A stretch of DNA of 64,000 nt. It comes from Acidobacteriota bacterium. Lineage in GTDB: Bacteria; Acidobacteriota; Vicinamibacteria; Marinacidobacterales; Marinacidobacteraceae. Positions 4,455 to 50,664 of the stretch are shown here, in pieces. The translations under genes were made by a program, and so were the position numbers. A model generated the notes under the pieces. That model searched no databases, had not been told where the DNA came from, and saw only the letters and a list, made by a program, of their open reading frames with translations. Position 1 is the first letter of the stretch, and the number at the start of each line of letters is the position of its first letter. The stretch spans positions 4,122 through 68,121 of the forward strand of contig JAJEFG010000108.1 in the NCBI GenBank assembly GCA_022820545.1, read 5' to 3'.

Positions 4455-4647
4455 CGCCCAAGCGTAACGGCCAGGGACCCCGCGAAGTGCCGCCAGCGCC
4501 CTGTCATCCGCCCATTACAGGCCGTTGGGCCCCGGCTATACTGACTGGCTACCCCGTGTGGAGAACCGCATGCGGCGCCCGGGTATTGGCGGGTTGCGCG
4601 CGCCGCTTCGCGATGGTCCAGGTCCGCGGGGTGCTGCAAGCAGTTCC

Positions 4648-5184
4648 GTGCCGTCCCCGTTCCACTCCACGACCGTCCTGGCCGTCCGCCGCGGCGGAAG
4701 CACGACGCTCGCCGCCGACGGACAGGTCACCCTGGGGGACATCGTGGTGAAGCACGGGGCGCGCAAGCTGCGCCGGATGAGCGAAGGCGCGGTCCTCGCC
4801 GGTTTCGCCGGGGCCACCGCGGACGCCCAGGCGCTGTTCGCCAAGTTCGAGACGAAGCTCGAGGCCCACCGGGGCAACCTCGAACGCGCGTGCGTGGAAC
4901 TCGCGCAGGACTGGCGGACCGACCGGGTGCTCCGCCATCTGGATGCCCTGCTGCTCGTCGCCGACAAGGACCACGTCTTCCTCCTTTCGGGGGACGGCGA
5001 CCTCATGCAGCCCGACGACGGCATCATGGCGATCGGCGCGGGCGCGCCCTTCGCGATGGCGGCGGCGCGCGCCCTCGCGTCCCGGACCGAACTCACCGCC
5101 CGGGAGATCGCGGAGGAGGCGATGCGCGTCACCGGCGGCATCTGCATCTACACGAACGGTCAGGTGATCTACGAAGAGGTGTGA
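4648..5184 (+). CDS. hslV: ATP-dependent protease subunit HslV
   Basis: Conserved HslV sequence 'TTVLAVRRGG..LAADGQVTLGDIVVKHGARKLRR...GFAGATADAQALF...' . The track ORF starts at 4525, but there is no ATG directly before the catalytic Thr; a GTG start around 4648 is likely, exact start uncertain. Confidence 0.85.
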   Translation: MPSPFHSTTVLAVRRGGSTTLAADGQVTLGDIVVKHGARKLRRMSEGAVLAGFAGATADAQALFAKFETKLEAHRGNLERACVELAQDWRTDRVLRHLDALLLVADKDHVFLLSGDGDLMQPDDGIMAIGAGAPFAMAAARALASRTELTAREIAEEAMRVTGGICIYTNGQVIYEEV

Positions 5185-5208
5185 CTTCTGGTCGAGTATC
5201 TACCCGCC

Positions 5209-6627
<1,419 letters not shown>

Positions 6628-6661
6628 CGGCGCTCCGACTGTCGCCGATGGCCGGACCTCG

Positions 6662-8428
6662 ATGAGGACCCTGGCCGCGCTGGCTCTCGTCCTGATCGCC
6701 GCCGCCGGAAGCTGCGGCCGCCGGGGTCCGCCGCTCGCTCCGCTTCAGGTGGACCCGGAAACGCCCCGGGTCCTGCCGCTCCGGCAGGAGAACGGCGCGG
6801 TCGTGGTGCGCTGGCACGCGCCCCGCCTCGACTCCGGGGGGGACCCCGCGGACCTGCGGCTGCGCCGGGCGATCGTGTCCTACCGGGTCCTGGACCTCCA
6901 CGCGCTCGCCGCCGAGGAGCGCGCCTCCCAGCGCCAGCCGCCGGAGGAAACGGACGAAGAGGACCCTGACGCCACCCCGTCCGGTGACGAGGACGCTGCC
7001 GAAGTTTCCGAACCGGAGAGCCCGGTGTCGGAGGAGCCGGCCGCGCCGGACACGGTGGCGCCCGAGACCGGAGAGCCCGCCCCCGGGGAAGAAGCGCCTT
7101 TGCCGGATGCCGGGCCCGCGGAGGCCGCCGAACCGGCGACGGAGGAACCGTCCCCCGAGGCGCCCGCCCCCGAGCAGCCGCCCGTAGCGACGGAGGAACC
7201 GTCCCCCGCCGGCGGGGCGCCCCCGGAGGAAGCGGAAGCGCAGCCGGAGCAGGAACCGGTGCCGGAGGGGGAACCGGAGCAGGACCCGGTGCCGGAGGGG
7301 GAACCGGAGCAGGACCCGGCAACCGACCCGGAGCCCGACGAGACCCAGGAAGAGCCGGACCCCGAAGCACCCGCCGGAGAGGAGCCCGGCGGTGAGACCC
7401 AGGAAGAGCCGGAGCCCGAGGCCGAGCCGGAACCCGAGGGCACCCTCCTCGACTACGAGGAACTCGAGTTCGAGGTGCTCTCCGAGATCGAGTCGGAAGT
7501 GCCCGGGGAGGAACAGGTCCTCGAGCTGCCGGTGGAACCGGACTGGATCGGCCGCCGCCTCGAGGTCACCGTCCGCTACGAGGCGCGCGGGGGCGCCAGC
7601 GAGGAGAGCGAACCCCAGTCCCTCGACGTCACCGGTCCGCTGCCGCTGGTGGAGGGGCTTCTTGTCGAGGTCGGGCCGCGCGAGCTGACCATCCGCTGGC
7701 AGGACCCCCGCGACGCCCTGGGCGAGGCGCTCCTGGCGGACCCCGTGTTCGAGGTCTTCCGGCGGCGCGGAGAGGATTCCGAGCGGGTGGGACGGTCCTT
7801 CGGCCCGAGCCAGACCGACGCCGGCGTCGTCTGGGGGGAGGAGGTCTGCTATCGCGCGCGGCTCGTGGTGGCGGGGGTCGCGGAAGAGCGGGTGATCCCC
7901 GATCCCGGACCCGTCGCGCCGCCCGGCGCCGAGGAGGACGAGGGCGCCGGCGAGCCTCCGGCTCCGGACGAAACCGGCGAGGCGGACGCCCCGGAGACAC
8001 CCGAAGCGGAACCCGGTGATTCCGAGTCCGGGGAGGAGCCGTGGACCCCGATCCCGGTCCGGGTCCCCGGCGCCGGAACCGGGGCGCTGAGCGTCGGACC
8101 GATGTCGGCCGAGGAATGCGTGGTTCCGGTGGACGTCTTCCCGCCGGTCCCGCCTTCGGACCTCCGCCTCTTCTGGCGCAGCGAGGCGACCGAACTCAGT
8201 TGGAGGGACTCGGCCTCCACCGACGTCGCCGGATATCACGTCTACCGCTCCGGACCGGCCGGCGCCGGCTTCCAGCGCCTCACGGAGTCGCTCGTGGAGC
8301 AGACGAGCTATACGGACGCGGAGCGCGATCCGCGGGCCGCCTATCGCTACGCCGTCACGGCGGTGGACGGCGCCGACCCGCCGAACGAGAGCCTGCCCTC
8401 CGACCCCCGCACCGCGAATCCGCGATAA
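6662..8428 (+). CDS. lipoprotein with a long acidic Pro/Glu-rich low-complexity region and C-terminal fibronectin-III-like domain(s), hypothetical
   Basis: Internal ATG (MRTLAALALVLIAAAGSC, lipobox-like) 35 bp after the hslU stop. Residues about 95-260 are dominated by E/P/A/D (EPEQDPVPEGEPEQDP...). The C-terminus reads '...LSWRDSASTDVAGYHVYRS...YRYAVTAVDGADPPNES', which is FN3-like. The track ORF (6428) overlaps hslU, so its N-terminal extension was rejected. Confidence 0.7.
   Translation: MRTLAALALVLIAAAGSCGRRGPPLAPLQVDPETPRVLPLRQENGAVVVRWHAPRLDSGGDPADLRLRRAIVSYRVLDLHALAAEERASQRQPPEETDEEDPDATPSGDEDAAEVSEPESPVSEEPAAPDTVAPETGEPAPGEEAPLPDAGPAEAAEPATEEPSPEAPAPEQPPVATEEPSPAGGAPPEEAEAQPEQEPVPEGEPEQDPVPEGEPEQDPATDPEPDETQEEPDPEAPAGEEPGGETQEEPEPEAEPEPEGTLLDYEELEFEVLSEIESEVPGEEQVLELPVEPDWIGRRLEVTVRYEARGGASEESEPQSLDVTGPLPLVEGLLVEVGPRELTIRWQDPRDALGEALLADPVFEVFRRRGEDSERVGRSFGPSQTDAGVVWGEEVCYRARLVVAGVAEERVIPDPGPVAPPGAEEDEGAGEPPAPDETGEADAPETPEAEPGDSESGEEPWTPIPVRVPGAGTGALSVGPMSAEECVVPVDVFPPVPPSDLRLFWRSEATELSWRDSASTDVAGYHVYRSGPAGAGFQRLTESLVEQTSYTDAERDPRAAYRYAVTAVDGADPPNESLPSDPRTANPR
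7261..7320 (+). repeat. perfect 30-bp tandem duplication inside the acidic lipoprotein gene (encodes PEGEPEQDPV x2)
   Basis: gccggagggggaaccggagcaggacccggt occurs twice in tandem (7261-7290 and 7291-7320), with a degenerate third copy just upstream. Confidence 0.8.
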
Positions 8429-8476
8429 GCGGCCGCGGCGCACACTGGCGGGCCGGCCAGCGGCCGTGAGCGCCTC

Positions 8477-8600
8477 GGAGCGCCGGCCTCCGGCCGGCAT
8501 CGCGCGGGAGCGCGAAACCCGCGCTGATGGCGCTGTCTCGGAGCGCCGGCCTCCGGCCGGCATCGCGCGGGAGCGCGAAACCAGCGCTGATGGCGCTCCG
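8477..8600 (+). repeat. two tandem copies (about 62 bp each) of a GC-rich two-hairpin intergenic repeat (REP-like family)
   Basis: ggagcgccggcctccggccggcatcgcgcgggagcgcgaaac(c/a)cgcgctgatggcgct repeated twice. Hairpin 1 is GCCGGCC-TCC-GGCCGGC and hairpin 2 is GCGCG-GGA-GCGCG followed by GAAAC. The same family recurs at seven other loci. Confidence 0.8.
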
Positions 8601-8727
8601 AGCTCCAGCCGTTCTCGCGACGGCCTGGAACGCCGCGTCACTCGTGCCGCCAACCGGTAGAATTGTGTCGGGGTTTGGGGACCTGGATTCCGGGCCGAAT
8701 TCCGGATTGACGAGGTGCCGGGCGCGC

Positions 8728-9388: not shown

Positions 9389-10954
9389 GTGGCGCCGAAA
9401 TCCGAAGGGTCTCCGGACGCCTTCGCCGAACTCGAGGCGCGGAACCGCCGCGCCGAGGAAGGCGGGGGCGCCGCCCGGCTCGAGCGGCAGCGGCGTTCCG
9501 GCAGACTGACGGCGCGCGAGCGGATCGCGACCCTCGTCGACGCCGGGTCCTTCGAGGAGACCGGAAGACTGGTCGAGCATCGCTCGCGCGATTTCGGACT
9601 GGACGAGCAGCGCTATCCCGGGGACGGCGTCGTGACCGGCTACGGCCGGATCGACGGGCGCCTCGCCTACCTGTTCGCGCAGGACTTCACGGTTCTCGGC
9701 GGCTCGCTGAGCGAGGCGGTCGCGGAGAAGATCTGCCGGACCATGGACCTCGCGGTCCGCCAGGGCGCCCCCATCATCGGGCTGAACGACTCCGGGGGCG
9801 CGCGCATCCAGGAAGGGGTGGTCTCGCTCGCCGGATACGCCGACATCTTCCTGAGGAACACGCTGGCGTCGGGAGTGGTTCCGCAGATTTCGGCCATCCT
9901 CGGGCCCTGCGCGGGGGGCGCCGTGTATTCCCCGGCCATCACCGACTTCACGATCATGTCGCGCGGCACCAGCTACATGTTCGTGACCGGGCCGGACGTG
10001 ATCCGCGCCGTGACCCACGAGGAGGTCACGATGGAGGACCTCGGCGGCGCGGAGACCCACAACACGGTCTCGGGGAACGCGCACTTCCTGGGAGAGAACG
10101 ACGAGGACTGCCTCGACCTGATCCGGCAGCTCCTCTCCTTCCTGCCGTCGAACAACCTGGAGGAGCCGCCGCGGCGTCCCTCGGCGGATCCGCCCGACCG
10201 GGAGGTCCCGTCGCTCGACAGTCTCGTTCCGGAGGAACCCGACCGGCCGTACGACATCAAGGACCTGATCGGCGAAGTGGTGGACGACGGCGAGTTCCTG
10301 GAAGTCCAGGCGCTCCACGCCGGGAACCTGGTGGTCGGTTTCGCGCGGCTCGCCGGGGCCCCGGTGGGGATCCTCGCGAACCAGCCGGCGGTGCTGGCCG
10401 GCGTCCTGGACATCCAGGCTTCCGTGAAGGGCGCCCGCTTCGTCCGTTTCTGCGACGCCTTCAACATCCCGCTGATCACGTTCGAGGACGTGCCGGGCTT
10501 CCTGCCGGGGACCCAGCAGGAGTGGGGAGGCATCATCCGGCACGGGGCGAAGCTGCTCTATGCCTTCGCGGAGGCCACCGTTCCCAAGGTCACGGTGATC
10601 ACCCGCAAGGCGTACGGCGGCGCCTACTGCGTGATGGCGAGCAAGCACATCCGGACCGACCTCAACTACGCCTGGCCGAACGCCGAGATCGCGGTGATGG
10701 GGCCGGAGGGCGCCGTGAACGTCCTCTACCGGCGGGAACTCGAAAAGGCCGAGGACGCGGAGGCAGAGCGCGCCGCCCGGGTGGCCGCCTACCGCGAGCG
10801 CTTCGCGAACCCGTACGTGGCGGCGGAGCGGGGGTACGTGGACGAGGTCATCCCGCCGCGGGCCACCCGCCGGAAACTGACCGCCGCGCTCGCCTCGCTG
10901 GCCACCAAGCGCGACCGGAACCCTCCGAAGAAGCACGGGAACATCCCGCTCTGA
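9389..10954 (+). CDS. acyl-CoA carboxylase carboxyltransferase subunit (PccB/AccD5-like, fused CT beta/alpha)
   Basis: 521 aa; '[16 protein letters not shown]...[12 protein letters not shown]...[14 protein letters not shown]...[14 protein letters not shown]' is typical of propionyl-CoA/methylmalonyl-CoA carboxyltransferase. Confidence 0.85.
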
Positions 10955-10981
10955 GTCCATGCCCGGACCGCCGGCCGCCTG

Positions 10982-12496
10982 ATGTTCCGCCGCGTCCTCG
11001 TCGCCAACCGGGGTGAGATCGCGGTCCGGATCATCCGGGCCTGCCGCGACCTCGGCGTCTCGCCGGTGACGGTCCACTCCGAGGCCGACCGGGACAGCCT
11101 GCACGTGCGGCTGGCCGACGAATCCTTCGAGGTGGGGGGAGCGGCCTCCCGCGACAGCTACCTGAACGGCGAGCGGGTCCTCGAGGCGGCGCGGGCCATG
11201 GAGGCGGAGGCCCTTCATCCGGGGTACGGGTTCCTGGCGGAGAACGGCGATTTCGCCGCGCGCTGCGCCGAGCGCGGCCTCGTCTTCGTGGGACCGCCTC
11301 CCGAGGCCATGCGCCGGATGGGGGACAAGGCCGCGGCTCGGGAGACGGCGGTCGAGGCCGGCGTTCCGGTCGTCCCGGGCTCGGACATCGTCGCGGGGAA
11401 GGACGCCGAGCGCGCCGCCCCGGGGATCGGGTTCCCGCTGCTCATCAAGGCCGCGGCCGGGGGCGGGGGGATGGGAATGCGCCTCGTGCGGGAACCTTCG
11501 GACTTCCCGGACTCCCTCCGGGAGGCGCAGTCCGAAGCGGAGGCGGCCTTCGGCGACGCCCGGGTGTTCCTCGAGCGCTTCGTGGAGAACCCGCGCCACG
11601 TGGAGATCCAGGTGTTCGGCGACGACTTCGGGTCCGTGGTTCACCTCGGGGAGCGCGACTGTTCGATCCAGCGCCGGAACCAGAAGCTCCTCGAAGAGAG
11701 CCCCTCACCCGCGATCTCGCCGGAACTCCGGGCCGGGATGGGAGAGGCGGCCGTGCGGCTCGCGCGCGGCGCCGGCTACCGGAACGCCGGGACCGTGGAG
11801 TTCCTGCTCGATCCGGAAGGGCGCTTCCATTTCCTCGAAATGAACGCGCGGCTCCAGGTCGAGCATCCGGTCACCGAACTCGTATCGGGGTTGGACCTCG
11901 TCGCGCTCCAGTTGCGGATCGCCGCCGGCGAGCCGCTCGGCTTCACGCAGTCCGAGGTCTCGCTCAGCGGCGCGGCGATCGAGCTCCGGATCACCGCGGA
12001 GGATCCGTTCGCCGGCTTCGTCCCGGCCACCGGCCGTATCCGGGAGTTCCGTCCCCCCGCCGGTCCGGGGGTCCGCTGCGACGCCGGGATCGTTTCGGGC
12101 AGCGTGGTCTCCCCGCACTACGACCCCCTGCTCGCCAAGATCATCGTTTCCGGGCCCGACCGGGAAACGGCCCGGAAACGGGCCATCCGGGCCGTCCGGG
12201 AGACCCGGCTCGTCGGAGTCGCCTCGACCCTGCCCTTCTTCGAGCGGGTGCTGGCCAGCGCGCCCTTCCGCAGCGGGGACTTCGATACCTCGTTCGTCTC
12301 CGCGCACTGGCCCGCGCTCAGCCGGGACGGCGAGGACGGCGGCCGTGGGACGCATGCCGAACTGGCGCCCCTGGCGCTCGCGGCGGCGGCCGCCGAGCTG
12401 TGGCGGCGGGAAGGCTCGAACCCGCCCGCGTCCGGCGCGCCCCCGTCCCGGTGGCGGCTCGCCGGCGTCGCGGAAGCGCATCGCGAACGGCTCTGA
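10982..12496 (+). CDS. accC: biotin carboxylase subunit of acyl-CoA carboxylase
   Basis: 'MFRRVLVANRGEIAVRIIRACRDLG...HPGYGFLAEN...GPPPEAMRRMGDKAAARE...' ATP-grasp biotin carboxylase; 504 aa. Confidence 0.9.
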   Translation: MFRRVLVANRGEIAVRIIRACRDLGVSPVTVHSEADRDSLHVRLADESFEVGGAASRDSYLNGERVLEAARAMEAEALHPGYGFLAENGDFAARCAERGLVFVGPPPEAMRRMGDKAAARETAVEAGVPVVPGSDIVAGKDAERAAPGIGFPLLIKAAAGGGGMGMRLVREPSDFPDSLREAQSEAEAAFGDARVFLERFVENPRHVEIQVFGDDFGSVVHLGERDCSIQRRNQKLLEESPSPAISPELRAGMGEAAVRLARGAGYRNAGTVEFLLDPEGRFHFLEMNARLQVEHPVTELVSGLDLVALQLRIAAGEPLGFTQSEVSLSGAAIELRITAEDPFAGFVPATGRIREFRPPAGPGVRCDAGIVSGSVVSPHYDPLLAKIIVSGPDRETARKRAIRAVRETRLVGVASTLPFFERVLASAPFRSGDFDTSFVSAHWPALSRDGEDGGRGTHAELAPLALAAAAAELWRREGSNPPASGAPPSRWRLAGVAEAHRERL

Positions 12497-25207: not shown

Positions 25208-25765
25208 ATGTCCTGGATCCACATGGTTCCGCCCACCGCCCCCGAGGGGCAGGAGGGGCGGCTCGGGGAGCTCTACCGGCGGCACCGGCGTCCGGACGGG
25301 CTGGTGGACAACATCCTGAGGGTCTCCAGCCTGAACCCGGAAGCGCTGGAGCACCACCTGTCGCTCTATGAACACCTGATGCGGGGCGAATCGGGCCTCA
25401 GCCTCGCCGAACGGGAACTGATCGCCGTCACCGTCTCGGTGGTCAACGACTGCCACTATTGAATCGAGCATCACCGGAGAGGTCTTCTCCGGCTGACCCG
25501 GGATCCGCAATTGGTGGATGCCCTGCGCCGTGATCCGGAGGGCTGCCCCCTCGCGCCCCGCCAGCGGGCGCTCGCCGACTACGCCATCAAGCTGGCGCGC
25601 ACCCCGGGGAGCCTGGTGGAGCGGGATCTCGAGCCGCTCCGCGGCGCCGGACTCTCCGACCGCGACATCCACGACGCCTGCGCGCTGGCGTCCTACTACT
25701 GCTTCGTGAACCGCATGGCGAACGGCCTCGGCGTGGAGCTGGAGGAGGCCGAATCCGGCAGTTAG
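25208..25765 (+). CDS. AhpD/CMD-family (alkylhydroperoxidase AhpD core domain, peroxidase-related) protein with an in-frame TGA at the active-site position; predicted selenoprotein (Sec at codon 85)
   Basis: Track ORFs 25208..25462 and 25511..25765 are in the same frame and separated only by TGA at 25460-25462. Read-through gives 'VSVVNDCHY-U-IEHHRRGLLRLTRDPQLVDALRRDP...', which is the AhpD-core CxxCxxxH motif with the second Cys replaced by the TGA codon. The downstream half continues with family-typical sequence (LADYAIKLARTPGSL..DLEPLRGAGLSDRDIHDA). Confidence 0.65.
25463..25495 (+). promoter_or_regulatory. candidate bacterial SECIS element (stem-loop starting 11 nt after the in-frame UGA)
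   Basis: UGA-AUCGAGCAUCA-CCGGAGA-GGUCU-UCUCCGG-CUGA: a perfect 7-bp stem, extendable by UCA/UGA with a 1-nt internal mismatch. The apical loop contains GGUC, as in the E. coli fdhF SECIS apical region. The spacing of 11 nt from UGA is canonical. Confidence 0.6.
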
Positions 25766-25784: not shown

Positions 25785-25845
25785 GGGAACGCCGGTCTCC
25801 AGACCGGCACCGCGGCGCTCCGCGCCGCGCACCATGCGGACCCGG
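25785..25845 (+). repeat. REP-like two-hairpin intergenic repeat (family copy H)
   Basis: gggaacgccggtctccagaccggcaccgcggcgctccgcgccgcgcacc ; hairpin 1 is GCCGGTC-TCCA-GACCGGC and hairpin 2 is GCGGCGC-TCC-GCGCCGC. A cccggatgg motif just upstream is also seen flanking copies C and D. Confidence 0.6.
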
Positions 25846-37823: not shown

Positions 37824-38855
37824 GTGATCGCCCCCCTCCTCGAAACCCTGCTCTCCGGCGAGGCCGCCGATTCCGGCGCGCTGGAGACCGCTCTCCACCG
37901 GATCCTGGCCGGCGAGAGTGACGTCGCCCAGACGGCGGGACTGCTCGTCGCCCTCAGGATCAACGAGCCCGATGCCGCGACGCTGGCCGCGTGCGCCCGC
38001 GCGCTCCGGGGTCACCGGAAGGCCGTCATGTCGCAGGTGCGGCCGCTGGTGGACACCTGCGGAACCGGCGGCGACAAGAGCGGCACGTTCAACATCTCCA
38101 CGGCTTCGGCGCTGGTGGTCGCGGCCGCCGGCGGCGCGGTGGCCAAGCACGGCAACCGCAGCGTCTCGTCCATCACCGGCAGCGCCGACGTCCTGGAAGC
38201 CTGCGGCGCGCCGCTCCACCTCGAGCCCGCTCAGGCTTCCCGGATCCTGGACTCCACGGGCTTCGTGTTCCTGTTCGCTCCCGCCTTCCACCCCGCCATG
38301 GCCCACGTCGGGCCGGCGCGCCGCGCGCTCGGGATCCGCACCCTCTTCAACGTCCTCGGCCCGCTCGCGAACCCGGCGCTCGCCGACCGTCAGTTGATCG
38401 GTGTCTACGATCCGTCCCTGACGGAGACCGTCGCGGGGGCACTCGCCGAGCTCGGGTCCGCCTCGGCGCTCGTGGTGCACTGCGAGGGGCTGGACGAGAT
38501 CGGCCTTCACGCCACGACCCGGGGCCACGCCCTGAACGACGGGAAGGTGAGTCCGGTCGAGATCCGGGCCTCCGAACTGGGACTCCGCGAAGCCTCGATC
38601 GAGGAGTTGCGCGGCGGCGCCACCTCCCAGAACGCGGAGATCCTGCGCGCCGTGCTCTCCGGGGAGGACGACGGCCCGAAGCGGGACGTGGTCGCCGCGA
38701 ACGCGGGCGCCGCGCTCACCGTGGCCGGCCTCGAGCCGGACCTGCAGGCCGGCGTGAAGACCGCGTTGGAGACACTCGCGTCGGGCCGCGCGCTGCGCAC
38801 CCTGGAACGCTACGTGGAGACCAGCATGCGGATGACCGGAATGAATGTGGCGTGA
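37824..38855 (+). CDS. trpD: anthranilate phosphoribosyltransferase
   Basis: '...LVDTCGTGGDKSGTFNISTASALVVAAAGGAVAKHGNRSVSS..GSADVLEA...' canonical TrpD. GTG start after AAGGAG; the track ORF (36270) is an upstream artifact. Confidence 0.9.
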   Translation: MIAPLLETLLSGEAADSGALETALHRILAGESDVAQTAGLLVALRINEPDAATLAACARALRGHRKAVMSQVRPLVDTCGTGGDKSGTFNISTASALVVAAAGGAVAKHGNRSVSSITGSADVLEACGAPLHLEPAQASRILDSTGFVFLFAPAFHPAMAHVGPARRALGIRTLFNVLGPLANPALADRQLIGVYDPSLTETVAGALAELGSASALVVHCEGLDEIGLHATTRGHALNDGKVSPVEIRASELGLREASIEELRGGATSQNAEILRAVLSGEDDGPKRDVVAANAGAALTVAGLEPDLQAGVKTALETLASGRALRTLERYVETSMRMTGMNVA

Positions 38856-39628
38856 CCGAACGGGTACTCGAGCGGCTCGTGCGAGCCGCCGAGGCGAGAG
38901 CGGAGCGGCTCGCGGCGGAACCGGACCCCGGGCCTCCTGACCGGGAGCCTCCTTCCTTCCGGGAGGCGGTCGGCGGGCGGGGCGCGCTGTCGGTGATCGC
39001 CGAGTTCAAGCGGAAGAGTCCGAGCGCCGGGGCGATCCGCGACGACCATCCCGGCGCCCGGGCGCTGGCCTACCGGGAGGCCGGCGCCTCCGCCGTCTCC
39101 GTGCTGACCGACCCGGATGCCTTCGGGGGGTCCCTCGCGGACCTGCACGCGGCTTCGGCGGCCTCCGGCCTCCCCATCCTGATGAAGGACTTCGTCGTCG
39201 ATTCGGCGCAGATCCGGGCGGGCCGGGCGGCGGGAGCGTCCGCCGTGCTGCTGATCGTCCGCTGCCTGGACGACGCCAGGCTGCGCCGTCTCCATCGGGA
39301 GGCGCGCTCGCTGGGGCTCGACACGCTGGTCGAAGTGCACGACGCGCCGGAACTCGATCGCGCCCTGGCGCTCGAGGACGCCATCGTGGGGATCAACAAC
39401 CGGGACCTGGACACACTGCGGACGGATCGCGGCCGCGCCCGCGACCTCCTCCCCCGGGTTCCGCCCGGACGGATCGCGGTCGCCGAGAGCGGGTATCTCG
39501 AGCCGGAGCACCTGGCGGAGTTGCGGGGGCGGGCGGACGCGGTGCTCATCGGGACGGCGTTGATGCGCGCGGCCGATCCCTCGGCATTCCTCCGGGCCGC
39601 AACCGAACCGGTGCCGGCCGGCGTCTGA
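38852..39628 (+). CDS. trpC: indole-3-glycerol phosphate synthase
   Basis: 'ALSVIAEFKRKSPSAGAI.....A..Y...GASAVSVLTD...F.GS..DL.......LPILMKDFVVD..Q...' typical IGPS. GTG overlapping the trpD stop (GTGA). Confidence 0.85.
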   Translation: MTERVLERLVRAAEARAERLAAEPDPGPPDREPPSFREAVGGRGALSVIAEFKRKSPSAGAIRDDHPGARALAYREAGASAVSVLTDPDAFGGSLADLHAASAASGLPILMKDFVVDSAQIRAGRAAGASAVLLIVRCLDDARLRRLHREARSLGLDTLVEVHDAPELDRALALEDAIVGINNRDLDTLRTDRGRARDLLPRVPPGRIAVAESGYLEPEHLAELRGRADAVLIGTALMRAADPSAFLRAATEPVPAGV

Positions 39629-40264: not shown

Positions 40265-41457
40265 AGGCGTCACTCCGTCCTCGCCTGGGCGCGTTCGGCT
40301 CCTTCGGGGGGCGTTTCGCTCCGGAACTCCTCACCCCCGCGCTCGAGGAACTGGAGACGGCCCGGCGGGAGATCGTCCCCACGCCGGCGTTCCGGGACGA
40401 ACTGGACCGCGAGGCGCGCGCCTGGGTGGGGCGGCCGACTCCGCTCACCAGAGCTCCCCGGTTCTCGGATCGGGCCGGCCTCGAAACCGTCTTCAAGCGG
40501 GAGGACCTGCTCCACGGCGGAGCGCACAAGGCCAACAACGTCCTGGGGCAGGCGCTCCTGGCCCGGCACATGGGCAAGACCCGGCTGATCGCGGAGACCG
40601 GCGCCGGACAGCACGGGACCGCGACCGCGATGATCGCCGCCCGTTTCGGAATGCAGGCGGTGATCTACATGGGGGAGAAGGACATGGAGCGCCAGGCCCC
40701 CAACGTGAAGCGGATGGAGCTCTGCGGCGCCGAGGTCATCCCCGTGACGGCGGGCGCCCGGACGCTCAAGGACGCGATCAACGAGGCGCTCCGCGACTGG
40801 ACGGCGAGCCTGTCCACCACCCACTACCTGCTCGGGACGGCCGCCGGACCCCACCCCTTTCCGCGGCTGGTGCGGGACTTCCAGGCGGTCATCGGCCGCG
40901 AGGCGAAGCGGCAGTGGCGGCGGGAGTTCGGAGGACTGCCCGACGTGGTGGTGGCCTGCGTCGGCGGCGGCAGCAACGCGATCGGCATCTTTCACGCCTT
41001 CGTGCCCGACAAGTCGGTGCGGCTCGTGGGCGTCGAGCCCGGCGGAGCGGGACTCGACAGCGGCCGTCACGGGGCCACCCTGGTTCGCGGGACGCCCGGC
41101 CTGCTCCACGGGGCCCGGACGATGATCCTGCAGGACGACGAAGGGCAGATCCTCGAGCCGCACAGCATCTCCGCCGGACTCGACTATCCCGGCGTCGGCC
41201 CCGAGCACGCGCACCTTCAGGAGACCGGCCGGGCCCGCTACGTCGCCGCCACCGACGAGGAAGCGCTGGCGGCCTTCGAGGTGCTGTCGGCCACCGAGGG
41301 GATCGTCCCCGCCTTCGAGCCCTCGCACGCGCTCGCGTTCGTCCTGCGCGCCCGGGAGTCGGGAGAGCTCGCCGCCGGGGCGCGGGTGCTCCTGAACCTC
41401 TGTGGCCGGGGCGACAAGGATCTGGAGACCTATTTCGCGCTGGGCCGGTCCTCATGA
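40261..41457 (+). CDS. trpB: tryptophan synthase beta chain
   Basis: 'FGSFGGRFAPELL...FKREDLLHGGAHKANNVLGQALLA..MGKTRLIAETGAGQHGTATA...' canonical TrpB PLP motifs. ATG overlaps the trpF stop. Confidence 0.9.
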   Translation: MKASLRPRLGAFGSFGGRFAPELLTPALEELETARREIVPTPAFRDELDREARAWVGRPTPLTRAPRFSDRAGLETVFKREDLLHGGAHKANNVLGQALLARHMGKTRLIAETGAGQHGTATAMIAARFGMQAVIYMGEKDMERQAPNVKRMELCGAEVIPVTAGARTLKDAINEALRDWTASLSTTHYLLGTAAGPHPFPRLVRDFQAVIGREAKRQWRREFGGLPDVVVACVGGGSNAIGIFHAFVPDKSVRLVGVEPGGAGLDSGRHGATLVRGTPGLLHGARTMILQDDEGQILEPHSISAGLDYPGVGPEHAHLQETGRARYVAATDEEALAAFEVLSATEGIVPAFEPSHALAFVLRARESGELAAGARVLLNLCGRGDKDLETYFALGRSS

Positions 41458-42251
41458 GCCTGGCCGCGCTCCGCACCTCGATGGAGCAGGGACCGGCGGT
41501 TTCGCCCTTCCTGATGCTCGGCGATCCGACTCCGGACCTCAGCGTGGAGTTGGCCCGGACGGCCGTCGCGGCGGGCGCCGGGATGCTCGAGATCGGTCTT
41601 CCGTACAGCGATCCGGCGGCCGACGGGCCGGCCATCCAGGCGGCCACCGGGCGCGCCCTCGCCGCGGGGACGTCCACCCGGCGCGGGTTCCGGCTCCTGG
41701 CGAGGATCGCGGAGGCCTGTCCCGGCATCCCGCTCAACCTGTTGGTGTACGGCAATCTCGTGCACCGGATCGGATACGAACGGTTCACGGATACCGTGAG
41801 CCAGGCGGGGGCTTCCACCCTGCTCGTGCCGGACATCCCGCTCGAGGAGGCGCTCCCGTTGCGCCGGGCCTGCCGGGGCGCCGGCCTCGGCCACGTGGAG
41901 CTTGCCGGGCCTCTCACTCCGGCGCCGCGCCTCGCGCGTCTCGCGCAGGGTTCCGCTTTCCTCTACCTCGCGGGGTTTCAGGGGGTGACGGGCGTCCGTC
42001 ACGGTGGGTTCGCCGCGGTCCTGGGCCGCGTCACCGAAGTGGCGGAATCCGTGGACGTTCCCGTCTGTCTCGGGTTCGGGATCTCCAGCCGCGACCAGAT
42101 CGTCCGCGCCTTCGGGGCCGGCGCGCGGATCGCGGTCGTCGGCAGCCATCTGGCGCGGGTGGTGGGGACCCTCTACGGCGCTCCGGCGGACGCGGAGCGC
42201 CTCGTCGCCGGTTACCGTTCCGCCGTGCTCGCGCTCGCCTCGAACGGGTAG
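41454..42251 (+). CDS. trpA: tryptophan synthase alpha chain
   Basis: '...FLMLGDPTPDLSVELARTAVAAGAGMLEIGLPYSDPAADGPAIQ...' canonical TrpA. ATG overlaps the trpB TGA. Confidence 0.9.
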   Translation: MSLAALRTSMEQGPAVSPFLMLGDPTPDLSVELARTAVAAGAGMLEIGLPYSDPAADGPAIQAATGRALAAGTSTRRGFRLLARIAEACPGIPLNLLVYGNLVHRIGYERFTDTVSQAGASTLLVPDIPLEEALPLRRACRGAGLGHVELAGPLTPAPRLARLAQGSAFLYLAGFQGVTGVRHGGFAAVLGRVTEVAESVDVPVCLGFGISSRDQIVRAFGAGARIAVVGSHLARVVGTLYGAPADAERLVAGYRSAVLALASNG

Positions 42252-42271
42252 GGAAGCGAAAAGGACGAACC

Positions 42272-43276
42272 ATGCTGGTCATCATGCAGACGGCCCCTAC
42301 CGAGGAGCAGTGCGCCCGTGTCGAGACCGCGATCCGGGACATGGGTTTCACGCCGCTCCGGGTGCCGGGCGCCGACCGGACCGCGATCTGCGTCACCGGG
42401 AACCGGGGGCCGGTGGACCCCTCGTTCCTGATCCGGCTCCCCGGGGTCGCCCGCTGCATTCCCGTCACCAAGCCGTTCAAGCTGGTCAGCCGCGAGGTCC
42501 ACCCGGCGGACACCGTGGTGGAGATCGGCGGTGTGCCGGTGGGCGGACCCGACCCGGTGGTGATCGCCGGACCGTGCAGCGTCGAGACCGAGGCGCGGAC
42601 GGTCGAGATCGCGCGCGCCCTCCGTACGGCGAACGCCGACCTGTTCCGCGCGCGACTGGGGTCGGAGAGTGTCGGGCCGTACCAGTTCGCAGGGGTCGGC
42701 GAGGAGGGCCTCCATACCCTGGAGCGGGTGCGCGAGGAGACCGGGATCCCGGTGATTACGGAGATCGCGGACCCGCGTACCGCCGAGCGCGTGGCCGAGC
42801 GCGTCGATGCCGTCGAGATCGCCGGTCGTCACATGGAGAACGAGCCGCTTCTCGAGATCGCCGCCGGCATCGCGGTGCCCATCATTCTGGAACGAGCGCC
42901 GTCCGCAACCGTGGACGAGTGGCTGATGGCGGCGGAATCCCTTCTCGCCCGCGAGAAGCGGGATGTGGTCCTCTGCGAGCGCGGCATCCGGACCGGCGGC
43001 GAGCGGCGTACCCTGCTCGATCTCCACGGGGTCCCGGTGGTCCGGCGGATGTCCCATTTGCCAGTGCTGGTGGACCCTTCGCACGCGGTTGCGGAGCGGG
43101 ATCGTGTGCGCCCACTGGCTCGCGCCGCGCTCAGCGCCGGCGCCTCCGGCATCGCGATCGCGGTGCACACCCACCCGGACACCGCCTACACCGACCCGCG
43201 GCAGACCGTGGACATCCCGACCTTCGAGGGCATCCAGCGCGACCTCGTCCGGATCGGCGCGTTGGAGGCGATATAA
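42272..43276 (+). CDS. 3-deoxy-7-phosphoheptulonate (DAHP) synthase, AroA(G)/KDO8PS-like class I-beta type with N-terminal ACT/ferredoxin-like regulatory domain
   Basis: N-terminal 'MLVIMQTAPTEEQCARVETAIRDMGFTPLRVPGADRTAICVTGNR' regulatory domain, then 'VIAGPCSVE...' catalytic barrel typical of Thermotoga/Bacillus-type DAHP synthase. Last gene of the trp cluster. Confidence 0.85.
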   Translation: MLVIMQTAPTEEQCARVETAIRDMGFTPLRVPGADRTAICVTGNRGPVDPSFLIRLPGVARCIPVTKPFKLVSREVHPADTVVEIGGVPVGGPDPVVIAGPCSVETEARTVEIARALRTANADLFRARLGSESVGPYQFAGVGEEGLHTLERVREETGIPVITEIADPRTAERVAERVDAVEIAGRHMENEPLLEIAAGIAVPIILERAPSATVDEWLMAAESLLAREKRDVVLCERGIRTGGERRTLLDLHGVPVVRRMSHLPVLVDPSHAVAERDRVRPLARAALSAGASGIAIAVHTHPDTAYTDPRQTVDIPTFEGIQRDLVRIGALEAI

Positions 43277-44286: not shown

Positions 44287-44841
44287 ATGCCTGACCCCCC
44301 GGCCCAACCGGCAGCCCCCAAACCGGCTCCGAGGCGGGCTGCCAGCGCCGCGAAGAAGGTCACTCGCCGGGAGTTCCCGTTCCTCGCCATCGGCTGGGGC
44401 ATGTTCACGGCCGCGATGGCGGCCGGGCTGACCGCGGCGGGCCGGTTCATGTTCCCGAACGTGCTCACCGAGCCGCCATCGACGTTCACCGCGGGCTTCC
44501 CGGATGACTTCGCCATCGGGGTCGTCGACACCCGTTTCAAGGAGCGCTACCAGGTCTGGATCGTCCGGGACGAGGAAGGGATCTACGCCCTGTCCACCAT
44601 CTGCACTCATCTCGGGTGCACGCCGAACTGGCTGGAGGCCGAGGCCAAGTTCAAGTGCCCCTGCCACGGCAGCGGGTTCTACGCCACCGGAATCAACTTC
44701 GAGGGTCCGGCCCCGCGGCCGCTCGAAAGGGTCGGTGTCAGTCTGGCCGAGGACGGTCAGGTTCTCATCGACAAGTCGCGCCTCTTCAAGTTCGAGGCAG
44801 GTCAGTGGAACGACCCCGCCTCGTTCCTGCCGCTCACGTAG
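44287..44841 (+). CDS. Rieske [2Fe-2S] protein of a cytochrome b-type complex
   Basis: Rieske boxes 'CTHLGC' and 'CPCHGS' with correct spacing; N-terminal TM anchor. Confidence 0.85.
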   Translation: MPDPPAQPAAPKPAPRRAASAAKKVTRREFPFLAIGWGMFTAAMAAGLTAAGRFMFPNVLTEPPSTFTAGFPDDFAIGVVDTRFKERYQVWIVRDEEGIYALSTICTHLGCTPNWLEAEAKFKCPCHGSGFYATGINFEGPAPRPLERVGVSLAEDGQVLIDKSRLFKFEAGQWNDPASFLPLT

Positions 44842-44859
44842 TCGAAAGGCAGGGGCGTC

Positions 44860-45660
44860 ATGTTGAACCGCATCCTCGCCCCTCTCTCCGCCGCCTGGAA
44901 GGAGGCGACGGACTCGCAGGTCTGGACCTCGATCTTCCGTCACGGCAAGCCGGTCAGCAACCGGAACCGGGCGCTCGTGATGATGAGCAACGTGTTCCTG
45001 CACCTGCACCCGGTCAAGTCCCGGAAGGCGGGCATCAAGCTCCGTTACACGTGGTGCATGGGGGGGATCACCTTCTTCCTGTTCCTGGTGCTCACCTTCA
45101 CCGGGCTGCTCCTGATGTTCTACTACCGGCCCACCGTGGAGTACGCCTACGCGGACATCGTGGACCTGCAGGAGCACGTCCCGCTCGGCATCATGCGGGA
45201 ACTCCACCGCTGGGGCGCGCACGCCATGGTCATCACGGTGTGGCTGCACATGCTGCGGGTGTTCATGACCGGCTCCTACAAGCCGCCGCGGGAGTTCAAC
45301 TGGGGCATCGGGGTGGTCCTGCTGGTGCTCACCCTGCTCCTGTCCTTCACCGGCTACCTGCTTCCCTGGGACCAGCTGGCGATCTGGGCGATCGCGGTGG
45401 GTTCCAACATGGCGCGCGCGACGCCGCTCCTCGGAACGGAAGGGCCGTTATCGGCGTCCCTCACCCTGGGGGACATCAGCCTCATCAACGCGGGGAACGA
45501 CGCGCGCTTCGCGTTGCTGGGCGCCCGTTCGGTCGGCCAGCCGACGCTTCTCCGCTTCTACGTCCTTCACTGTGTCGGGCTACCCCTTGCCGCCGCCTTC
45601 CTGATGGCGGTGCATTTCTGGCGGGTCCGCAAGGACGGGGGTATCTCGGGGCCGATGTAG
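44860..45660 (+). CDS. cytochrome b, N-terminal (b6-like) subunit
   Basis: Four-TM cytochrome b6-like sequence with haem-ligand His pairs (e.g. '[21 protein letters not shown]', '...[17 protein letters not shown]'). Confidence 0.85.
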
Positions 45661-45711
45661 GTCCGAATCCAGCTTTGAGAGAAGACGTTCCCGCCGCGAC
45701 CCGTTGAGACC

Positions 45712-46833
45712 GTGATCGACCTCTTCAAGGATCTCGTCAACTGGGCCTCGGGGCCTACGGTCCTGTTCACGATCGCGACGCTCGGCCTGCTGGCGGCCTT
45801 CCGCTTCACCCAGGTCTGGAGCAAGACCTCGGCGAAGGTGTTCTTCGTGGTCCTCGCCGTGTTCTACACCGCGAGCATGTGGGACCCCGACTTCTTCCTG
45901 ATCGTCGCGAAGCCCGACAACATCCCGATCACGGGGGTCATCTTCCTCGTCTTCTTCTTCACCTGGTACGCGATGCACCAGGGCATCCAGAACGACCGGC
46001 GGAGCGCGGGCGAACAGGAGGTCCTCGAGAAGCAGGAGTCCGAAAAGGTCTGGGTGTGGCCCGATCTCGTCTATACCGAGATGCTCGCGATGGTGATTCT
46101 CAGCATCGTGCTGCTGGTGTGGTCCATCCTGCTGGCGGCGCCGCTGGAGCAGCCGGCCAACCCCGCCGATTCACCGAACCCGTCCAAGGCGCCCTGGTAC
46201 TTCCTCGGGCTCCAGGAGATGCTCGTCTATTTCGACCCCTGGCTCGCGGGGGTGGTCTTCCCCACGCTGATCATCGTGGGGCTGATGGCGATTCCCTACA
46301 TCGACACGAACCCGAAGGGCAACGGCTACTTCACCTTCAAGGAGCGGAAGGCCGAGATCGTCATCTTCCTGTTCGGCTTCCTGATCCTCTGGTGCCTGCT
46401 GGTGGTTTCGGGCACGTTCCTGAGGGGGCCCAACTGGAACTTCTTCGGCCCCTACGAGTACTGGGACGTGCACCGGGTGGAGCCGCTGCTGAACGTCAAC
46501 GTCTCCGACTTCTTCTGGGTGAAGCTGCTCGGGCGTCCCTTGCCGACCGGCGGGTTCTTCGCGGCGCTCATGCGGGAATGGCTCGGCATCCTGATGGTGG
46601 GGGCCTACCTGTTCGTGCTTCCGGTGGTCATGTCGTGGCCGAGGGACCGGTTCCCCACCGGGCTCAAGTGGCTGAGCTGCCACCACTACTTCGAAAAGAT
46701 GGGCGCCACCCGCTACTACGTCGGCGTCAGCCTCTTCCTGATGATGATGAGCCTGCCGATCAAGATGTACCTGCGGTGGGCGTTCAACCTGAAGTACATC
46801 GTCGCCTTCCCGGAAATCTTCTTCAACATCTAG
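45712..46833 (+). CDS. cytochrome b C-terminal (subunit IV-like) protein with long extension
   Basis: 'PANPADSPNPSKAPWYFLGLQEML' corresponds to the PEWY/Qo-site region of the split cytochrome b subunit IV; several TM helices; GTG start. Confidence 0.75.
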   Translation: MIDLFKDLVNWASGPTVLFTIATLGLLAAFRFTQVWSKTSAKVFFVVLAVFYTASMWDPDFFLIVAKPDNIPITGVIFLVFFFTWYAMHQGIQNDRRSAGEQEVLEKQESEKVWVWPDLVYTEMLAMVILSIVLLVWSILLAAPLEQPANPADSPNPSKAPWYFLGLQEMLVYFDPWLAGVVFPTLIIVGLMAIPYIDTNPKGNGYFTFKERKAEIVIFLFGFLILWCLLVVSGTFLRGPNWNFFGPYEYWDVHRVEPLLNVNVSDFFWVKLLGRPLPTGGFFAALMREWLGILMVGAYLFVLPVVMSWPRDRFPTGLKWLSCHHYFEKMGATRYYVGVSLFLMMMSLPIKMYLRWAFNLKYIVAFPEIFFNI

Positions 46834-46843
46834 GCAGCCCGCA

Positions 46844-49651: not shown

Positions 49652-49734
49652 TCCGTTGGGATCTCTGATCGAAGCCGCACCGGAACGCCCCTTCGGGCGG
49701 GCGTTCCGTCAGTAAACCCCAGGAGAAGCATCAG

Positions 49735-50604
49735 ATGGCCGATGAACCGAAGGGAAGCCGCGGAAGTCTCCAGGGGATCGCCATGGCGGTCGTCATCTGG
49801 GCGATCGTGGTGATCTCGTCGCTCTACTACGTTCGTTACGGAGTGCCCGAGCTGGCCTCCGATCGCGGTTATCTCGACAGCCTCTACTACGTGATCCTCG
49901 GGATCACCGGGGCTGCCTACATCCTCTACCAGCTCGCGCTCGGCTACGTCATCTACCGGTACCGCGGCGACCGGCCCGGCGCCGAGTCGAGCCACTGGCA
50001 CGAGAGCCACAAGCTCGAACTCACCTGGACCATCGGGACGGCGGCCATCCTCATCCCCATCGTCTTCACCGGCCTGATCTACTGGGACCGGGTCCGGGGG
50101 CCGGCGCCGGACGACGCGGTGACGGTGATGGCCGTCGGGGCGCAGTTCCAGTGGGACTTCCACTATCCGGGGGCGGACGGTGAGTTCGGCCGCTTCGACC
50201 CCACGCTCTACGCCATCGACAACCAGATCGGACTCGACGAGACCGATCCGGCGGCGGCGGACGACTGGGTGCTCACCAACCAGTTGGTGATCCCGGTGAA
50301 TCGTCCGACGCGCATCCTGATGCGGTCGAAGGATGTCCAGCACGCCATCTTCCTGCCCAACTTCCGGGTGAAGCAGGACCTGGTCCCGGGCATGACCACC
50401 GAGGTCTGGTTCACCCCGGTCAAGACCGGGAGTTACGAGGTGGCGTGCGCCGAGCTCTGCGGACTCGGCCACTACCGGATGCGCGCCTTCCTCGAGGTGA
50501 TGGAAGAGGCCGACTACCAGCAGTGGCTGAGCGACAACGCACCGGCCGCGGTGGCGGACGTGGCGGACCCGGCGGCGGAGGCCCCGCCCGCCTCGGCCGA
50601 GTAG
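49735..50604 (+). CDS. ctaC: cytochrome c oxidase subunit II (CuA)
   Basis: Two N-terminal TM helices and the CuA motif '...HAIFLPNFRVKQDLVPGMTTEVWFTPVKTGSYEVACAELCGLGHYRM'. Confidence 0.85.
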   Translation: MADEPKGSRGSLQGIAMAVVIWAIVVISSLYYVRYGVPELASDRGYLDSLYYVILGITGAAYILYQLALGYVIYRYRGDRPGAESSHWHESHKLELTWTIGTAAILIPIVFTGLIYWDRVRGPAPDDAVTVMAVGAQFQWDFHYPGADGEFGRFDPTLYAIDNQIGLDETDPAAADDWVLTNQLVIPVNRPTRILMRSKDVQHAIFLPNFRVKQDLVPGMTTEVWFTPVKTGSYEVACAELCGLGHYRMRAFLEVMEEADYQQWLSDNAPAAVADVADPAAEAPPASAE

Positions 50605-50664
50605 GCGGGCAGATCAGGAATCGAACCAGGAAGCGGATCCCCCCAAGAACTACGGAGTAACGCG

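Follow-up and report, generated by a model that had tools for sequence, protein, structure and literature searches.

An AhpD-like protein of COG2128 carrying a CxxU motif, where U stands for selenocysteine (Sec), was reported in 2005 as a new selenoprotein family on the basis of 27 sequences from the Sargasso Sea metagenome (PMC1088965). In the Global Ocean Sampling (GOS) survey AhpD-like proteins were the fourth most abundant selenoprotein family, with 299 Sec-containing and 902 Cys-containing sequences, and they occur in cultured genomes as well. The family (COG2128/YciW) is listed together with the model TIGR01926 in the 2022 and 2026 catalogues (PMC9312934, PMC13188914), with MCB9421940.1 as a representative, and has its own page in BSepDB. 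Here we analyze a gene that almost certainly belongs to this family. It lies at positions 25208-25765 of a 64,000-nucleotide stretch of DNA (hereafter, the window) from an Acidobacteriota bacterium of the Vicinamibacteria (contig JAJEFG010000108.1, positions 4,122 to 68,121 of the forward strand). An earlier note, made from the letters of this DNA alone, had predicted a selenoprotein at this place, and each check that could be run supported the prediction. We estimate at about 0.93 the probability that the locus is a single gene for an AhpD-like thiol/selenol oxidoreductase of 185 residues (peroxidase-related subfamily), with the UGA at 25460-25462 decoded as Sec. The coordinates of all elements are collected in Table 1.

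The open reading frame (ORF) list of the window contains two plus-strand ORFs of 84 amino acids each, 25208..25462 and 25511..25765, which share a common frame. Translation of the whole interval shows that a TGA is its sole internal stop, in the context VVNDCHY-stop-IEHHRRGLLRLTRD, so the two ORFs are indeed parted only by this codon, as had been noticed earlier. The GC content at third codon positions (GC3) is 0.89 in the N-terminal half and 0.87 in the C-terminal half, i.e., the composition is of the coding type in both (the GC content of the window is 70%), and the start, MSWIHMV, is kept in orthologs. With Cys put at the TGA position, the joined protein matches the PF02627 CMD domain at 3.2e-16 and the NCBIfam model TIGR01926 ("peroxidase-related enzyme") with 141.4 bits against a cutoff of 81.8, the match covering residues 21-177 of 185. 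The joined protein stays below the thresholds of other AhpD-type NCBIfam models, e.g., NF041238 (42.7 bits, cutoff 175), and NF041047 is absent from the families listed for it in the NCBIfam profile search. The nearest solved structures by sequence are the CxxC AhpD-like proteins 3c1l (1.6e-30), 2pfx, 6k40 AhpD, 2oyo and 2prr. Gene unity and family homology are thus directly supported, and we conclude that 25208-25765 is one gene of ordinary length and not two small genes. In the public protein collection its orthologs are present only as fragments of 102-108 amino acids that stop at ...CHY; standard gene callers split or truncate the gene.

An alignment of 30 homologs (A1) places the TGA column at the second Cys of the C-x-Y-C motif, which is Cys in nearly all full-length homologs. 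The position that the earlier note had assigned to the TGA within the redox motif was therefore correct. Residues E70, C82 and H89 are conserved in at least 90% of A1, and all five positions of the AhpD proton relay are present (E70, C82, Y84, U85 and H89). The corresponding residues are Glu118, Cys130, His132, Cys133 and His137 in Mycobacterium tuberculosis AhpD and Glu36, Cys48, Tyr50, Cys51 and His55 in PA0269 (PMC3141380).

Conservation of the TGA itself was followed in 19 orthologs, which together with the window give 20 sequences: 17 come from species genomes of Vicinamibacteria/Acidobacteriota, retrieved in a scan of one genome per species (GTDB species representatives), and two from metagenome contigs. 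The 17 genome orthologs are 75-94% identical to the window protein and all belong to Acidobacteriota/Vicinamibacteria metagenome-assembled genomes (MAGs), several of them named Candidatus (Ca.) Marinacidobacterium. The nearest database proteins, P0017 and P0020 (70-73% identity), end exactly at ...C-H/R-Y; in their contigs a TGA stands at the protein end and the same frame then continues. Amino-acid identity to the window protein ranges from 70 to 94% over the whole set, and the ortholog loci keep synteny with the window for ~20 kb (72-93% nucleotide identity), with the shared gene order amidase / PhzF / RNase H / AhpD-like gene / ABC-F / TPR-FG-GAP protein. Codon 85 is TGA in 20/20 sequences, while TGC, TGT, TAA and TAG occur in none. 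The match between the Cys and Sec columns and the conservation of the TGA are therefore observed directly.

Directly downstream of the TGA lies a hairpin that has the geometry of a bacterial Sec insertion sequence (SECIS; bSECIS for the bacterial form). The spacer between the TGA and the stem is 11 nt long (ATCGAGCATCA, 25463-25473), the stem consists of 7 perfect bp, the loop of 5 nt is GGUCU, and the distance from UGA to the loop is 18 nt. This is the stem which the earlier note had described, at the same place. The predicted free energy is -10.7 kcal/mol for the 19-nt hairpin alone and -15.8 kcal/mol for the region from UGA to +45. The bSECISearch consensus (PMC13188914, Figure 2) allows 3-9 nt in the loop and 4-16 bp in the stem, places the loop 16-37 nt from the UGA and sets the minimum free energy (MFE) at -7.5 kcal/mol or lower; of the first two loop nucleotides one or both must be G, the usual form being G[G/U]NN. 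The hairpin fits this published model in every respect (loop, stem, G position, spacing and energy), in agreement with the earlier claim that its spacing and loop fit the bacterial model. The same source had also proposed that the stem can be extended by 3 bp. The additional pairs do exist in the MFE structure, but they need a bulged C25493, and for two of the three, pairing is lost in 4/20 orthologs each and no compensatory change is seen. It follows that only the 7-bp stem is conserved.

Among the 20 orthologs the loop is invariant, down to a synonymous site, the third base of the GGT Gly codon; this base is T, with the GC3 of the genome near 0.9. The closing pair is GC in 8 sequences, AU in 7, GU in 3 and mismatched in 2; it is exchanged via synonymous AGA/AGG and CTT/CTC/CTG changes. 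The proportion of synonymous differences (pS) over codons 86-96 is 0.24, compared with a gene median of 0.45, and is the fourth lowest of 163 windows along the gene; a second region of low pS is found at codons 157-166. When three more distant TGA forms (L053, L081 and L076), whose hairpin is in the same register, were added to the orthologs (alignment A4), 3/7 stem pairs showed double compensatory changes, and 96% of the cells expected to pair were paired, against 87% in shuffles (0/500 reaching the observed value) and at most 66% with the partners slid. We regard the covariation in A4 as supportive, not independent, evidence.

The wider family was sampled by a library search with the exact 84-amino-acid N-terminal half as the query, which gave 685 matches. 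Of the best 150 cluster representatives (50% identity), 103 stop exactly at "Cxx", and CxxCxxxH is present in 29. In 80 divergent metagenomic homologs (39-61% identity) the Sec/Cys column is occupied by TGA in 63, by TGC/TGT in 15 and by GGT in 2, and the frame of the TGA forms continues in all, wherever the contig allows. The two GGT forms, L101 and L105, have Gly at this column (C-A-Y-G) and so have lost the second redox residue, with the rest of the motif kept.

We asked for a hairpin that fits the bSECIS model, with at least 5 bp and at most -5 kcal/mol, in 62 TGA and 16 Cys/Gly forms. Such a hairpin is present in 56/62 TGA forms and in 5/16 Cys/Gly forms (Fisher p = 4.5e-6); made across the family, this comparison is unbiased, unlike that in A4. 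Its spacing in the TGA forms is 16-18 nt in 45 cases and 24 nt in 9 cases, whereas in the Cys/Gly forms the spacings are scattered. GG is found at nt 22-23 (counted from the U of UGA) in 46/62 TGA forms, compared with 1/16 Cys/Gly forms. The stem sequence varies between lineages with pairing kept, as in ACGGAG/CUCCGU, UGCGGAG/CUCCGCA, AUGGAGCA/UGCUCCGU, CCGGCGC/GCGCCGG and CGACCUC/GAGGUCG. Thus, the conservation of the hairpin, its covariation and its tie to the TGA forms are all supported by the present data.

Two further observations were made on these hairpins. At the seventh codon past Sec (25481-25483 in the window; forms L028-L107), 46/62 TGA forms have a Gly codon (GGN), and the Cys/Gly forms mostly have an Ala codon (GCN); it seems that one residue of the protein is set by the need of the SECIS loop for G22 and G23. 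In nine forms (L065, L072, L084, L091, L093, L097, L099, L104 and L107) the hairpin stands 24 nt past UGA, not 16-18 nt. These forms have 6-nt loops, CGUGCC or CGGGCC, and the protein context U-x-x-A/T/S-H-x-x-D-L/F-R-A-E-V/I, and their stems covary strongly (CGACCUC/GAGGUCG, UGACCUC/GAGGUCA, GGAUCUC/GAGAUCC, CGACUUC/GAAGUCG); the family seems to comprise two SECIS architectures.

One can suppose that the UGA is decoded but not as Sec, either through near-cognate read-through with Trp or Cys or through genome-wide reassignment. Reassignment does not agree with the stop codons of the 38 rough ORFs of the window, of which 17 are TGA, 17 TAG and 4 TAA; since TGA ends 17/38 ORFs, UGA is not reassigned. 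Low-level UGA read-through does occur in bacteria, and in the window and related loci no Sec machinery was seen. However, among the 17 distant homologs without TGA the column is Cys in 15, not Trp or Gly, and a product with Cys at this place should have given TGC or TGT at least once in the 20 clade sequences, where none is seen. Read-through of this kind also leaves aside the hairpin of SECIS geometry with its G-rich loop, which is tied to TGA forms, and the fact that AhpD-like proteins are a documented selenoprotein family. We consider non-Sec decoding improbable.

The codons past the TGA bear on the possibility of a pseudogene. The pairwise ratio of nonsynonymous to synonymous rates (dN/dS) in the 20 orthologs amounts to 0.15 upstream of the TGA (codons 1-84) and 0.21 downstream of it (codons 86-185), with dS of ~0.6-0.7. 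Neither frameshifts nor extra stops are found in the downstream 100 codons in any of the 20 orthologs, the proportion of nonsynonymous differences (pN) is 0 over codons 86-96, and the first 14 codons past the TGA (IEHHRRGLLRLTRD) are protein-invariant in 20/20 sequences. Judged from these comparisons of sequences, purifying selection acts on both sides of the TGA and the region past it is translated, which directly supports the part of our interpretation that concerns the C-terminal half. A nonsense mutation of TGC or TGT to TGA at the catalytic Cys codon of an AhpD-like gene would need only one base change, and the public gene callers did cut the orthologs P0017 and P0020 at the TGA. Against such an origin stand the same TGA in 20/20 orthologs at the divergence given above, the 100 intact downstream codons with their low dN/dS and high GC3, and the 63 distant homologs that likewise have a TGA and a continuing frame. 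A pseudogene is therefore very unlikely, as the earlier note had argued for it and for the case considered next.

Two small genes, i.e., an 84-residue protein that ends at the TGA and an independent 84-residue protein that starts from TTG 25511, would account for the equal length of the two ORFs, and split domains occur in bacteria. The 16 codons between the TGA and this TTG are, however, all in frame and include the protein-invariant ones. At the place of the TTG with which the second ORF starts, 15/20 sequences have CTG, and 18/19 of the sequences other than the window have CTG, ACG or CTC; because the TTG is mostly replaced by CTG in orthologs, the second ORF has no conserved start. The split would moreover part the two redox residues of one active site, and separate H89 from it, and we hold this possibility to be just as slight as that of a pseudogene. 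A sequencing or assembly error that hides a true TGC or TGT, which the earlier note had named as a threat to the prediction and which one wrong base could in principle create, has a negligible probability in view of the identical TGA in 19 independent assemblies of related genomes from different projects and in 63 unrelated metagenome contigs. Since the TGA is conserved, the downstream codons are constrained and the TTG is not kept, a pseudogene, two genes and a sequencing error are excluded.

Several observations weigh against decoding as Sec, or against the hairpin as its signal. The stability of the hairpin is unexceptional: the MFE of the 56-nt region, -15.9 kcal/mol, compares with -14.6 +/- 2.8 kcal/mol in shuffles (z = -0.47) and is not above chance, and the MFE of 54 nt fails to separate Sec from Cys forms. 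Because neither the shuffle z-score nor the 54-nt MFE discriminates, we give stability no weight as an argument. A perfect hairpin of at least 7 bp with SECIS geometry follows 31/1110 TGA trinucleotides of the window (2.8%), and 10/1110 (0.9%) have such a hairpin and a loop starting with GG or GU. Since stability is unexceptional at this GC content, the hairpin is convincing only via its position and its conservation. With respect to the latter, only one stem pair covaries among close orthologs, and the covariation in A4 is inflated, because L053, L081 and L076 were chosen after the hairpin in the same register had been seen. The element matches no Rfam family when the whole window is searched at gathering thresholds; a permissive Rfam scan of 25300-25650 gave two chance miRNA matches (E > 3), neither of which overlaps the hairpin. 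Also, the upper stem has no counterpart of the bulged U17 of Escherichia coli fdhF, the only bulge, C25493, being found below the stem, on the 3' side. Bulged U17 is a SelB-binding determinant in E. coli, alongside G23 and U24 of the loop, and lies outside the general bSECIS model.

The remaining points of this kind concern the Sec machinery. ARAGORN found 0 tRNAs in the 64-kb window and, in the 19 orthologous loci, no tRNA-Sec, the only tRNA being a tRNA-Pro in L003. The E. coli K-12 SelA, SelB and SelD proteins gave no tblastn match at thresholds of 1e-2 or 1e-3, either in the window or across ~689 kb of related loci, and Pfam annotation of ~40 window ORFs revealed no Sec genes. Chromosomes of the relatives measure 2.3-4.5 Mb, so that 64 kb samples little of them, and the window is less than 2% of a 3.5-4.5 Mb genome; we therefore treat this absence as uninformative, not as negative. 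The phylum Acidobacteriota includes known Sec users.

The decoding of the UGA as Sec would proceed as follows. During translation, the hairpin that begins 11 nt past UGA would present its GGUCU apical loop, whose G22, G23 and U24 stand where E. coli fdhF has them. The complex of SelB, GTP and Sec-tRNA(Sec) would bind the loop and decode the UGA, where release factor 2 would otherwise act, as summarised for bacterial Sec decoding in PMC13188914. Sec would then take the place of the second Cys of CxxC, so that the C82-x-x-U85 center would sit inside the AhpD proton relay. C82 and U85 would be expected to cycle between the selenol/thiol and selenenylsulfide states with the help of E70, Y84 and H89, and the reducing power of the center may go either to a peroxiredoxin partner or straight to a hydroperoxide. 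The putative role is to help defend an aerobic bacterium of the Vicinamibacteria (Acidobacteriota) against oxidative stress. Dependence on SelB, actual insertion of selenium, the substrate and the redox partner are features that we infer by analogy with described systems.

The practical value of the result lies in the correct annotation of a gene that standard callers split or truncate; the joined reading gives the proteome back an antioxidant enzyme of full length. If the gene encodes a selenoprotein, it follows that the Sec-decoding trait is present in this Vicinamibacteria genome, along with a requirement for selenium, and a lineage is added to the distribution of an abundant environmental selenoprotein family. 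Our understanding of Sec decoding and of AhpD chemistry is unchanged by it. At least 18 species-level genomes of the clade keep the TGA and reversion to Cys is seen in none. We would give roughly even odds to a broader proposal, namely that Sec use is fixed across a clade of marine Vicinamibacteria that includes Ca. Marinacidobacterium and that the SECIS requirement has shaped the protein, with the Gly at U+7 supplying G22 and G23. If true, the clade would lend itself well, as a natural system, to studies of SECIS/protein co-evolution and of the retention of Sec in aerobes.

Some candidates retrieved by the searches were set aside. P0038 and P0054, proteins of ~2200 amino acids with E values of ~1e-16 against the 84-residue query, are false positives and not AhpD relatives, their scores being the sum of 11-20 weak repeat matches; the repeats contain ...EPLxxHVxVYHSGRSDE.... 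P0030, at 1121-1444 of L004, is a 107-residue homolog of the C-terminal half only and starts with ...TVVHHATSF; upstream of it in L004 there is no recognisable N-terminal half and no CxxU or CxxC. P0030 may be a gene remnant. When the window was scanned for further TGA-interrupted genes, only two places were flagged. They consist of adjacent independent genes in the same frame: a proteasome-type gene and an AAA ATPase gene (read as HslV/HslU-like) at 4525-6627, and carboxyltransferase and biotin carboxylase genes at 9389-12496.

The gene content of the window is that of an ordinary chromosome, with genes for an Omp85-family (BamA-type) protein, TamB, sigma-70, acyl-CoA carboxylase subunits, and trp and DAHP-synthase genes. 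At 25791-25808, 26 nt past the TAG stop of the AhpD-like gene, there is a near-perfect palindrome, GCCGGTCT-CC-AGACCGGC. It was not flagged by the terminator scan because it has no T-run, and it may be a transcription terminator lacking a T-tract or a protein-binding site. A contiguous aerobic respiratory cluster occupies 44287-52389 and encodes a Rieske protein, a split cytochrome b, the N- and C-terminal parts of which are separate genes, a 935-residue multi-domain cytochrome c, COX2 and COX1. The GC content at first codon positions (GC1) in this cluster, 0.53-0.67, is noticeably below that of the rest of the window, with GC3 at or above 0.92. In ORF 37991-39628 (545 residues) the IGPS domain covers residues 321-535, and in ORF 41402-43276 (624 residues) the DAHP-synthase domains cover residues 291-609; both ORFs are probably over-extended at the 5' side, which is common at 70% GC, or else have unannotated N-terminal regions. 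Finally, two ORFs of 666 and 678 amino acids overlap on opposite strands, at 6428-8428 (plus) and 6617-8653 (minus), respectively; GC3 is high in both and neither has a Pfam match.

Table 1. Predicted elements of the AhpD-like locus (positions in the window)
Feature	Position	Strand	Details
AhpD-like selenoprotein coding sequence, predicted (COG2128/TIGR01926)	25208..25765	+	185 codons including 1 putative Sec codon; stop TAG 25763-25765
In-frame TGA, probably read as Sec (U85 of C82-H-Y-U85)	25460..25462	+	aligned with Cys; TGA in 20/20 orthologs
Proton-relay/active-site codons, E70-x11-C82-x-Y84-U85-x3-H89	25415..25474	+	conservation in A1 and residues of PMC3141380
Putative SECIS upper stem-loop inside the coding sequence	25474..25492	+	CCGGAGA 25474-25480, GGUCU 25481-25485, UCUCCGG 25486-25492
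Possible lower extension of the stem	25471..25496	+	TCA 25471-25473 pairs with TGA 25494-25496, C25493 bulged; in window MFE structure; weakly supported

As for described systems, the SECIS of E. coli fdhF is likewise located inside the coding sequence, immediately 3' of UGA. Comparison with the actual K-12 sequence bore out the likeness of the loops that had been pointed out earlier: in both, UGA is followed by 18 nt and GGUC (nt 22-25), and the hexamer AGGUCU is common to both. The hairpins differ in that the one described here has a 5-nt loop and a perfect 7-bp upper stem, whereas the upper helix of fdhF is shorter and has the bulged U17. The stem sequences are unrelated, and binding of the hairpin by a Vicinamibacteria SelB is a prediction.

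Matches by sequence suggest that the protein shares the all-helical AhpD/CMD fold of M. tuberculosis AhpD, PA0269, 3c1l (Mlr4105), 2pfx and 6k40, and with the first two its relay E-x11-C-x-[H/Y]-C-x3-H agrees position for position. At the second redox position all five have Cys, in contrast to the Sec predicted here. The partners AhpC and lipoamide/DlaT are known only for mycobacterial AhpD, and no peroxiredoxin gene adjoins the AhpD-like gene of the window. Two other groups, the "distant AhpD homolog" (COG0599/NF041047, Geobacter) and NF041238 AhpD_rel_CFYUT, likewise combine a CMD/AhpD fold with a CxxU motif; these are different subfamilies, and the window protein is a member of neither.

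The closest relatives are the AhpD-like selenoproteins themselves. In common with them, the gene described here scores above the cutoff of the same NCBIfam model, has CxxU with Sec predicted at the second position and a bSECIS hairpin directly downstream, and belongs to a family with widespread Cys homologs and environmental abundance, where 103 of the best 150 representatives end at the UGA. No mention of Vicinamibacteria was found in the searchable selenoprotein literature. Since the AhpD-like selenoprotein family has been catalogued since 2005, the result amounts to correct annotation rather than discovery: nothing essential differs, and what sets the gene apart is its host lineage, a Vicinamibacteria clade that includes the Ca. 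Marinacidobacterium MAGs.

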